64,000 nucleotides of DNA from the NCBI RefSeq assembly GCF_045037415.1, contig NZ_CP173438.1. One strand, 5' to 3'. A program made the position numbers and the translations under genes. The first letter of the stretch is position 1, and each line of letters starts with the position of its first letter. Shown here one piece after another: positions 11,527 through 47,712 of this stretch. The notes beneath the pieces were generated by a model. That model had not been told where the DNA came from and ran no database searches. It was given only the letters and a program-made list of their open reading frames with translations. Origin of the DNA: Escherichia coli (GTDB lineage Bacteria > Pseudomonadota > Gammaproteobacteria > Enterobacterales > Enterobacteriaceae).

Positions 11527-12756
11527 CCCTTCGTGCGAATTTCCCATCTGTTTATCTTTTAAAAAGATAACCATCAGCGACAGCCACAAAATGCCGTTGA
11601 CAAGGTTGAAGAGATTAAACAGTCCGTTGCCCCCGTTCAGCCAGGCATGTTTGCTGATTTCAATACCGACGGTAAAGATCAGCATTTGCAGCATCCCCAT
11701 CGCCGCAGAAACCGTACCTTTACTCATATCGCTGGCAAACAGGGTTAATCGCACCAGTCCCGCATTCGCCAGACCAATACCGAAAGCATAAATACTTAAC
11801 CCGGCGGTCATCCATAAATACGCGTGCGATGAGATAACCGTTGCCGCAGCAGCGACCAACAGACCAATCATAATCGGCCAGCCGCCCATAATAATCAGCG
11901 AACGTACGGTGCGGCGCGAGGTCAGACGCGCTAACAGCAAGTTACCCGCAATTAACGCCCCAAAAATAGGCACTTGCAGCAGGCCATATTCATAGCTGCT
12001 CAACTGCTCACCGGTAATAATGATAATCGGCGACTGGGCGATCCACGCCAGCAACGGCAGGCTAACGAATCCCAGCGCCAGCGCCCCCGCCACAAAGCGA
12101 CCGTTCTTCAGCACCAGCTTATAGTCACGACCGAGTTCTTTCAGCGACAGTTTCTCGCCTATACGCGTGGCGGTTTCAGGCATAGCTCGTTGCAGACCGA
12201 AAAAGGAGATCGCTGCCAATGCGGCAAACAAGACAAACATCCCTTCCCAGGGCAGCACATGGATCCACGCCGCGCCCACCAGCGGACCAAGTAGTGGAGC
12301 AATCAGCGCCACGTTCGCCATTAGCGCGGTGATCTTGATACAAACCGCCTCTTCGAAGGATTCCTGAATTGCGGCGTATCCCACAGCGCCAATGAAACAG
12401 AGGCTTATACCCTGCAAGAAGCGCAACAGGGTGAATTGTTCAATGTTTTGTGCCAGTAATATTGCCAGACAGGTGACGATAAACCACACCACTCCCGCCA
12501 GCATCACCGGACGGCGGCCAATACGATCCGACAACGGCCCCAGGAGCCATTGTAAAAACATCCCGCCCGCCAGATACGCAGTCATCGAAGTAGGAACCCA
12601 ATCAATGCCCGCCTGATATTGTTCCACCACGGCCAACATACCGGGTTGAATCATATCGTTGCCGATATAGGTTGAAAATTCGTAAAGCACCAGACAGAGA
12701 GGGAAAAGTAACGCCTGACGTCCAAGCCTGGCACCGGAAGCTAATTTATTTTGCAT
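11524..12756 (-). CDS. mdfA: Multidrug efflux MFS transporter MdfA (Cmr)
   Basis: ORF track 11524..12786(-); ATG at 12754-12756 gives 410 aa [27 protein letters not shown]... Confidence 0.94.
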
Positions 12757-13040
12757 GCAATTTCTTCGCCAATAATAATCGCGCAAAGTTTAATAAAAGC
12801 GCAGCTAACGAGAAAGCGAATTTTGTAGCTGAAACCACGGTTAAGCACATTCTTACATTATTGCGAGTATAGCTACGCTTTCTTTAAGTTTTATTTAACC
12901 TTTGCCCGTTACAATCACCTACCGTAAACAGGCCGCTTGAGGGAAATAAGACGATGCCGCTTTACCCAGTTTAACCTGCACTTTATTCTCAACGACTTGC
13001 CTGTATTGGCTCCCTTTTAATCACTTTGCGTCGGGAAGTT

Positions 13041-45884: not shown

Positions 45885-46562
<678 letters not shown>

Positions 46563-46786
46563 ATCCATCGCTGATGGTGCAGAACTTTAGTACACGATAA
46601 AAGCGGCTTCCTGACAGGAGGCCGTTTTGTTTTGTAGCCCGCCTCAACGCACTTATTTAGTGCATCCATCTGCTATCCCCAGCTGGTTAAGTAAATTTTT
46701 TGTATCCACATCATCACACAATCGTTACATAAAGATTGTTTTTTCATCAGGTTTTACGCTAAATAATCACTGTGTTGAGTGCACAA

Positions 46787-46912
46787 TTTTAGCGCACCAG
46801 TTTGGTGCCCCAGAATGGTGCATCTTCAGGGTATTGCCCTATAAATCGTGCATCACGTTTTTGCCGCATCTCGAAAAATCAATGAGTTGCAAAACTGGCA
46901 CGATTTTTTCAT
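46787..46912 (+). promoter_or_regulatory. glnH nitrogen-regulated promoter region: tandem NtrC-type sites, IHF-like site, sigma-54 -24/-12 element
   Basis: GTGCACaattttaGCGCAC and GCACCAgtttGGTGC (TGCACC-N-GGTGCA-like) at about 46787-46833; AATCAATGAGTTG at about 46874-46890; TGGCACGATTTTTTCAT at about 46896-46912. Confidence 0.65.
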
Positions 46913-46950
46913 ATATGTGAATGTCACGCAGGGGATCGTCCCGTGGATAG

Positions 46951-47712
<762 letters not shown>

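Follow-up and report, generated by a model that had tools for sequence, protein, structure and literature searches.

Sequence, spacing and conservation place the nitrogen-regulated sigma-54 promoter glnHp2 upstream of the Escherichia coli glnHPQ operon

Our analysis of the window, a stretch of 64,000 nucleotides of Escherichia coli DNA, identified the interval 46787-46912 as glnHp2, the nitrogen-regulated promoter from which sigma-54 directs transcription of the glutamine ABC-transporter operon glnHPQ, a reading to which we assign a probability of about 0.96. This promoter, which turns on the glutamine transporter genes under nitrogen scarcity, was reportedly characterized in 1991 by Claverie-Martin and Magasanik, and has served since then as a model of how IHF assists activation from a distance. 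It is already known and there is nothing new in the promoter itself; its value here is that of a positive control, in which the enhancer-bend-promoter unit was recovered at the correct coordinates from sequence alone. All four elements claimed by the sequence-only reading, namely two NtrC-type palindromes, an IHF-like site and a sigma-54 element, were found where it had placed them within 46787-46912, in the order enhancer, bend and promoter. Its interpretation of the interval as a nitrogen-regulated promoter was also supported, with the refinement that the -12 element lacks the canonical GC.

The interval sits between the dps stop codon (46562) and the glnH start codon (46966). The glnH gene (46966-47712, + strand), the first of glnHPQ, encodes the periplasmic glutamine-binding protein, as indicated by its open reading frame and by the RefSeq annotation under the match, and the surrounding open reading frames encode OmpX (minus strand), RhtA, Dps, GlnH, GlnP, GlnQ and YbiO. 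The synteny is ompX-rhtA-dps-glnH-glnP-glnQ, with the window reading opposite to the MG1655 orientation. The dps-glnH intergenic region (411 bp) has perfect (100%) matches in many complete E. coli chromosomes; of 5426 complete genomes of the species, 5421 contain it at 95.7% identity or more, with dps and glnH as the RefSeq flanks. The matching places for this region numbered about 5423, two of them on plasmids, and five of the 5426 genomes were without it.

The alignment with K-12 MG1655, over 421 bases spanning the intergenic region, contained seven differences (99% identity). Comparison with the published glnHp2, a check suggested by the sequence-only reading, confirmed that 46787-46912 is orthologous to the region upstream of glnH in K-12 MG1655 and differs from it at two bases only, 46801 (T for A) and 46883 (T for G). 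The former is the central spacer base of the first NtrC dyad and the latter falls within the N4 of the IHF core, with no specified motif base touched. Among the E. coli variants sampled, changes were likewise confined to spacer or inter-motif bases (46801, 46812, 46832, 46883 and 46903). Because the two sequences are nearly identical, the behavior of glnHp2 described in K-12 would be expected to carry over to the present strain.

The sigma-54 promoter itself, CTGGCACGATTTTTTCA (46895-46911, + strand), combines a -24 TGGCAC with a non-canonical -12 TTTCA. Relative to the consensus YTGGCACG-N4-TTGCW, the -24 TGGCACG is perfect and the doublets have the correct 10-bp spacing, with TC rather than GC in the -12 element; the TGGCACG-N4-TTTCA element of the sequence-only reading corresponds to TGGCACGATTTTTTCA (46896-46911), for which the T replacing the G of the -12 GC is the sole mismatch to TGGCAC-N5-TTGCW. 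Motif scanning with a weight matrix derived from 41 other intergenic sigma-54 ChIP-seq sites (Bonocora et al. 2015) gave 46895-46911 the top score (15.7 bits) among the 127,968 positions of the window. Motif scores below threshold would have counted against the sequence-only reading, and this was not the outcome. This score is near the median of the 41 bound sites, 19 of which score lower, and other bound sites are similarly without the GC, such as those of hydN (TGAA) and pspA (TTGTA) (PMC4591121). The missing -12 GC makes glnHp2 a weak sigma-54 promoter, and in synthetic constructs it acts as a weak promoter that is naturally assisted by IHF. Elsewhere in the window, two minus-strand sequences exactly match sigma-54 sites reported from E. 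coli ChIP-seq: TATGCACGTTTATTGCA at 2706-2722 (OS08, potF) and TTGGCGAAGAAATTGCA at 12756-12772 (OS07, rcdA/ybjG region) (PMC4591121).

Occupancy of this element has been reported in K-12, where the sigma-54 ChIP-seq site OS06, flagged as confirmed, is exactly CTGGCACGATTTTTTCA and lies 63 bp ahead of the glnH start codon, and where overexpression of sigma-54 induced glnH and four other genes that have an intergenic site upstream (PMC4591121). Genomic SELEX revealed peaks of both RpoN and NtrC between glnH and dps. In Salmonella, glnHPQ is sigma-54-dependent through the site TGGCATGATTTTTTCATT, and the orthologue was occupied as determined by ChIP-chip. For glnH, the supplement of PMC8743547 gives the RpoN motif alone, the NtrC motif chosen there not being listed. 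The transcription start could be placed from the primers of Mao et al. 2007, which define the segment "-289 to +63 of glnHp2" (PMC1865078); with these primer sequences located in the K-12 alignment, +1 would correspond to window position 46923 (+ strand, +/-1 nt). With this start, the centers of the NtrC dyads fall at -122 and -109 and the IHF core at -46 to -34, and the leader is 43 nt long.

The two palindromes proposed by the sequence-only reading are NtrC (NRI) binding dyads. Dyad 1 (CGCACCAGTTTGGTGCC, 46793-46809, centered at 46801) has two mismatches to TGCACC-N5-GGTGCA and dyad 2 (TGCCCCAGAATGGTGCA, 46806-46822, centered at 46814) has one; they overlap by 4 bp, with centers 13 bp apart and a GGTGCC half-site common to both. 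The region upstream of the promoter thus contains the arrangement of an NtrC enhancer, defined as at least two TGCACCAnnnTGGTGCA boxes at about 100-150 bp, and the positions derived from the mapped primers agree with the published dyad positions of -109 and -122, which we take to be those of Claverie-Martin and Magasanik (1991). NtrC ChIP-seq in K-12 detected a 74.8-fold peak at glnHPQ (PMC4066584), and the literature assigns the up-regulation of the operon to NtrC (PMC4591121). E. coli has several sigma-54 activators, the sigma-54 core is activator-agnostic, and the promiscuous DctD250 turns on glnHPQ in Salmonella, all of which would be consistent with activation of glnHp2 by another enhancer-binding protein. 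However, the fit of both dyads to the TGCACCAnnnTGGTGCA box, the NtrC peaks obtained at this locus by ChIP-seq and genomic SELEX, and the assignment in the literature make such an activator highly improbable, and argue for NtrC.

A fourth, phased NtrC site (TGCACAATTTTAGCGCA, 46780-46796, three mismatches, centered at -135) was considered and ruled out, its positions being only 28% conserved. In E. coli H20 MIN6 (L122), the most divergent of the 5421 genomes in the ranking of the intergenic region, an exact 13-bp deletion at the equivalent of 46792-46804 removes one NtrC dyad repeat unit and leaves TGCACAATTTTAGTGCCCCAGAATGGTGCA, in which an upstream, non-conserved TGCACA replaces the lost half-site and recreates the dyad. 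A conserved element, TTGCC...(A/T-rich)...TGTGCA (46835-46852), lies in the DNA that separates the enhancer from the IHF site and is centered near -79; its TGTGCA is at least 90% conserved within Enterobacteriaceae, and in two species the element reads as a three-mismatch NtrC box that begins a match 30 bp downstream from dyad 2. The element may bind NtrC with low affinity, or may be recognized by a different factor.

The IHF-like site was recovered as an exact match to WATCAANNNNTTR, the core AATCAATGAGTTG (46877-46889, + strand), lying between the enhancer and the core promoter as expected for IHF-assisted activation, and inside a conserved block at about 46874-46895. In K-12, IHF ChIP-qPCR used an amplicon equivalent to window positions 46815-46919 (primers 46815-46837 and 46895-46919), and a DNase I footprint of IHF at glnHp2 has been cited (PMC8407004); the IHF-induced bend is needed for looping at this promoter (PMC2709558). 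A genome-wide IHF study found a glnH peak that was under its high threshold. The exact core is present only in Escherichia, most relatives having AAACAA-N4-TTG, with one mismatch. In some Pantoea and Hafnia, an exact core is carried by the opposite strand, about 10 bp farther upstream. The window as a whole is enriched in exact IHF cores (11, versus 2.8 expected). Upstream of dps, the exact core AATCAATGAGTTA (45911-45923, - strand) is identical to that of glnHp2 at 12 of 13 positions, in inverted orientation; use of IHF has been reported for the dps promoter.

Taken singly, none of the motifs of the interval was significant, and support comes only from their joint arrangement and their conservation. 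Allowing up to two mismatches, the window contained 39 sigma-54-like matches versus 42.5 expected from shuffles, and four NtrC-like matches, including dyads 1 and 2, versus 3.6 expected; a random 64-kb sequence would have a sigma-54 match of 15.7 bits about 0.9 times and NtrC-like matches about 3.3 times. These counts, and the existence of the sigma-70 promoter glnHp1 farther upstream (PMC1865078), would be consistent with a chance co-occurrence of the motifs in an AT-rich intergenic region, with glnH driven only by glnHp1. Against this, the joint arrangement, in which two or more NtrC boxes are found within the 140 bp upstream of a sigma-54 site scoring this high, and an IHF core lies between the boxes and the site, would occur about 8e-8 times in a random window; the conservation across 66 species is specific to motif bases; and occupancy in K-12 has been recorded by ChIP-seq, genomic SELEX and ChIP-qPCR. 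A chance origin is therefore scarcely credible, and identification of the interval as glnHp2 is retained.

To evaluate this conservation, 66 Enterobacterales upstream regions, from scans of one genome per species, were aligned with the window, using as an anchor a conserved 12-residue GlnH peptide that was back-translated and is independent of the promoter motifs. Identity to the window base averaged over the positions specified by the three motifs was 83%, versus 43% for the rest of 46787-46912 (Mann-Whitney p = 2e-12). The NtrC half-sites ranged from 73 to 89% and their spacers from 46 to 51%, with the GCACC half-site of dyad 1 at 89% versus 46% for its spacer, and the GGTGCA half-site of dyad 2 at 88% versus 51%. 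The specified positions of the IHF core were 70% conserved versus 44% for its N4, and the -24 TGGCAC and the -12 TTTCA were 93% and 95% conserved, respectively.

The individual sites were also retained at their orthologous positions. Within Enterobacteriaceae, dyad 1 was found with up to three mismatches in 31 of 40 species and dyad 2 in all 40, and an IHF core with at most one mismatch was detected in 38/40 Enterobacteriaceae and 11/11 Yersiniaceae. TGGCA was present in 64 of the 66 species; the -12 element was TTTC in 38 of 40 Enterobacteriaceae, and TTGC only in some Rahnella, Rouxiella, Tatumella and Hafnia. In 54 of 63 species, 82-85 bp separate the center of dyad 2 from the -24 GG, with 33 species having 84 bp; this geometry is nearly fixed, although the stretch from the dyads to the IHF block (46823-46873) is only 34% conserved. 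Both the motif bases and the spacing of enhancer and promoter are under purifying selection. The weak -12 (TTTC, not TTGC) and the distance of about 84 bp are conserved across Enterobacterales, which fits selection to keep the promoter weak and reliant on an IHF bend. Later work from the Magasanik laboratory reportedly indicated that a low-affinity sigma-54 promoter needs a correctly phased IHF bend, which limits activation to the cognate enhancer, and the conserved weak -12 and fixed spacing are consistent with this view of a phased bend.

In the mechanism that we propose, sigma-54 RNA polymerase would bind the -24 TGGCAC and -12 TTTCA (46895-46911), weakly as a result of the missing -12 GC, and form a closed complex that cannot open by itself. 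Under nitrogen limitation, phosphorylated NtrC would oligomerize on the overlapping dyads at -122 and -109, and IHF bound at -46 to -34 would bend the intervening DNA, allowing the NtrC ATPase to touch the polymerase and the open complex to form. Transcription of glnHPQ would then proceed from about 46923, with the 43-nt leader preceding glnH. Of the components of this scheme, the motifs, their order and spacing, the K-12 orthology and the selection come from the present analysis, and the occupancy and regulatory dependence from the K-12 and Salmonella literature.

Two promoters in tandem serve the operon: glnHp1, which is sigma-70-dependent and activated by CRP, and glnHp2, which requires both sigma-54 and NtrC-P (PMC1865078). 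The published, degenerate CRP site of glnHp1, ttgTATCCacatcaTCACAcaa (46700-46721), is centered at -61.5 of that promoter (PMC1865078), which would place the glnHp1 start at about 46772, with a putative -35 TTGTTT at 46736-46741 and a putative -10 TAAATA at 46760-46765. The region from 46700 to 46772 is well conserved in Enterobacteriaceae. A simple sigma-70 scan of 46540-46990 found no promoter-like site, which fits with glnHp1 as a weak, CRP-dependent promoter.

Outside the interval, a candidate distal NtrC-like dyad, CGCACTTATTTAGTGCA (46648-46664), directly follows the dps terminator and is centered at -267 from the glnHp2 start and at about -116 from that of glnHp1. It has three mismatches in E. 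coli; in 38 of the 40 species of Enterobacteriaceae, the dyad at the orthologous position has no more than two, its spacer being free to vary, and by this measure its conservation was better than that of the two known sites. Its distance to dyad 1 is a near-constant 144-146 bp. The species comparison did not find it in Erwiniaceae or Yersiniaceae. No description of this dyad was found in the accessible literature, which did not extend to the primary papers of 1986 to 1992, where it may be described. Its conservation suggests that the regulatory region may extend further upstream than in the classic description. That the characterized glnHp2 enhancer is incomplete, with this candidate as a third, distal NtrC dyad, is nevertheless improbable. 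If it were so, the distal dyad and the known sites would bracket glnHp1, and NtrC could silence p1 by looping while activating p2; alternatively, the distal dyad would supply an extra dimer for the activating NtrC oligomer.

A related possibility is that the NtrC dyads serve mainly or additionally as an operator for glnHp1 and that, together with the distal dyad, they create a loop or roadblock that shuts p1 during activation of p2. The position of the dyads relative to the p1 start, about +21 to +50 as estimated from the CRP site, would be consistent with such a role, as would the retention of the distal dyad in 38/40 Enterobacteriaceae at near-constant spacing, and the glnA p1/p2 pair, in which NtrC represses p1, has been described as having a similar architecture. 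However, a match with three mismatches, like that of E. coli, is expected about 0.16 times in 400 bp, and the constant spacing may merely reflect conservation of the intervening p1 promoter. This operator role is somewhat unlikely, and with the distal dyad as a predicted site it would supplement rather than replace the principal role of dyads 1 and 2 as the enhancer of glnHp2.

Downstream of the start, the 43-nt 5'UTR (46923-46965, + strand) contains a small GC hairpin (46923-46948) and a Shine-Dalgarno AGGA (46956-46959), and its sequence (consensus TTCTCGCAGGGGATCGCCCCGTGGAT..ATAAAAGGAAATGCTATG) hardly varies within Enterobacteriaceae. The hairpin was not thermodynamically exceptional (MFE -8.8 kcal/mol; z = 0.15 versus shuffles), RNAalifold on 24 species gave no consensus pairs in the 5'UTR, and an Rfam search returned nothing above the gathering score. 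At this position, Erwiniaceae have different small GC hairpins. At the other end of the intergenic region, the dps terminator hairpin (46600-46628) is followed by a T-tract, and sub-threshold Rfam matches at 46545-46635 (+ strand), covering the dps 3' end and terminator, were obtained for STnc70 (20.3 bits; gathering score 40) and ctRNA_p42d (24.5 bits; gathering score 50); these probably just reflect the terminator-like structure.

Among known systems, the closest is glnHp2 of K-12 itself, which is identical at 137 of 139 bases over 46787-46925, has the same NtrC dyads, IHF core, sigma-54 element and distances to glnH, and differs by two SNPs (46801, T for A; 46883, T for G). Like glnHp2, glnAp2 of the E. 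coli glnALG operon is a sigma-54 promoter activated by NtrC-P, with upstream dyads and an upstream, CRP-responsive sigma-70 promoter, p1; its two high-affinity NtrC sites are separate, not overlapping. It has a canonical, strong core (TTGGCACAGATTTCGCT) and works without IHF, whereas glnHp2 is weak and uses IHF. The layout of enhancer, IHF bend and -24/-12 element, with the logic of looping, is shared with Klebsiella nifH (NifA), Pseudomonas Pu (XylR) and E. coli pspA (PspF), although these promoters have other activators, upstream sites and signals. Finally, E. coli astCp2 resembles glnHp2 in being a weak sigma-54 promoter that depends on NtrC and on an architectural protein positioned between enhancer and promoter, but there the helper is ArgR rather than IHF.
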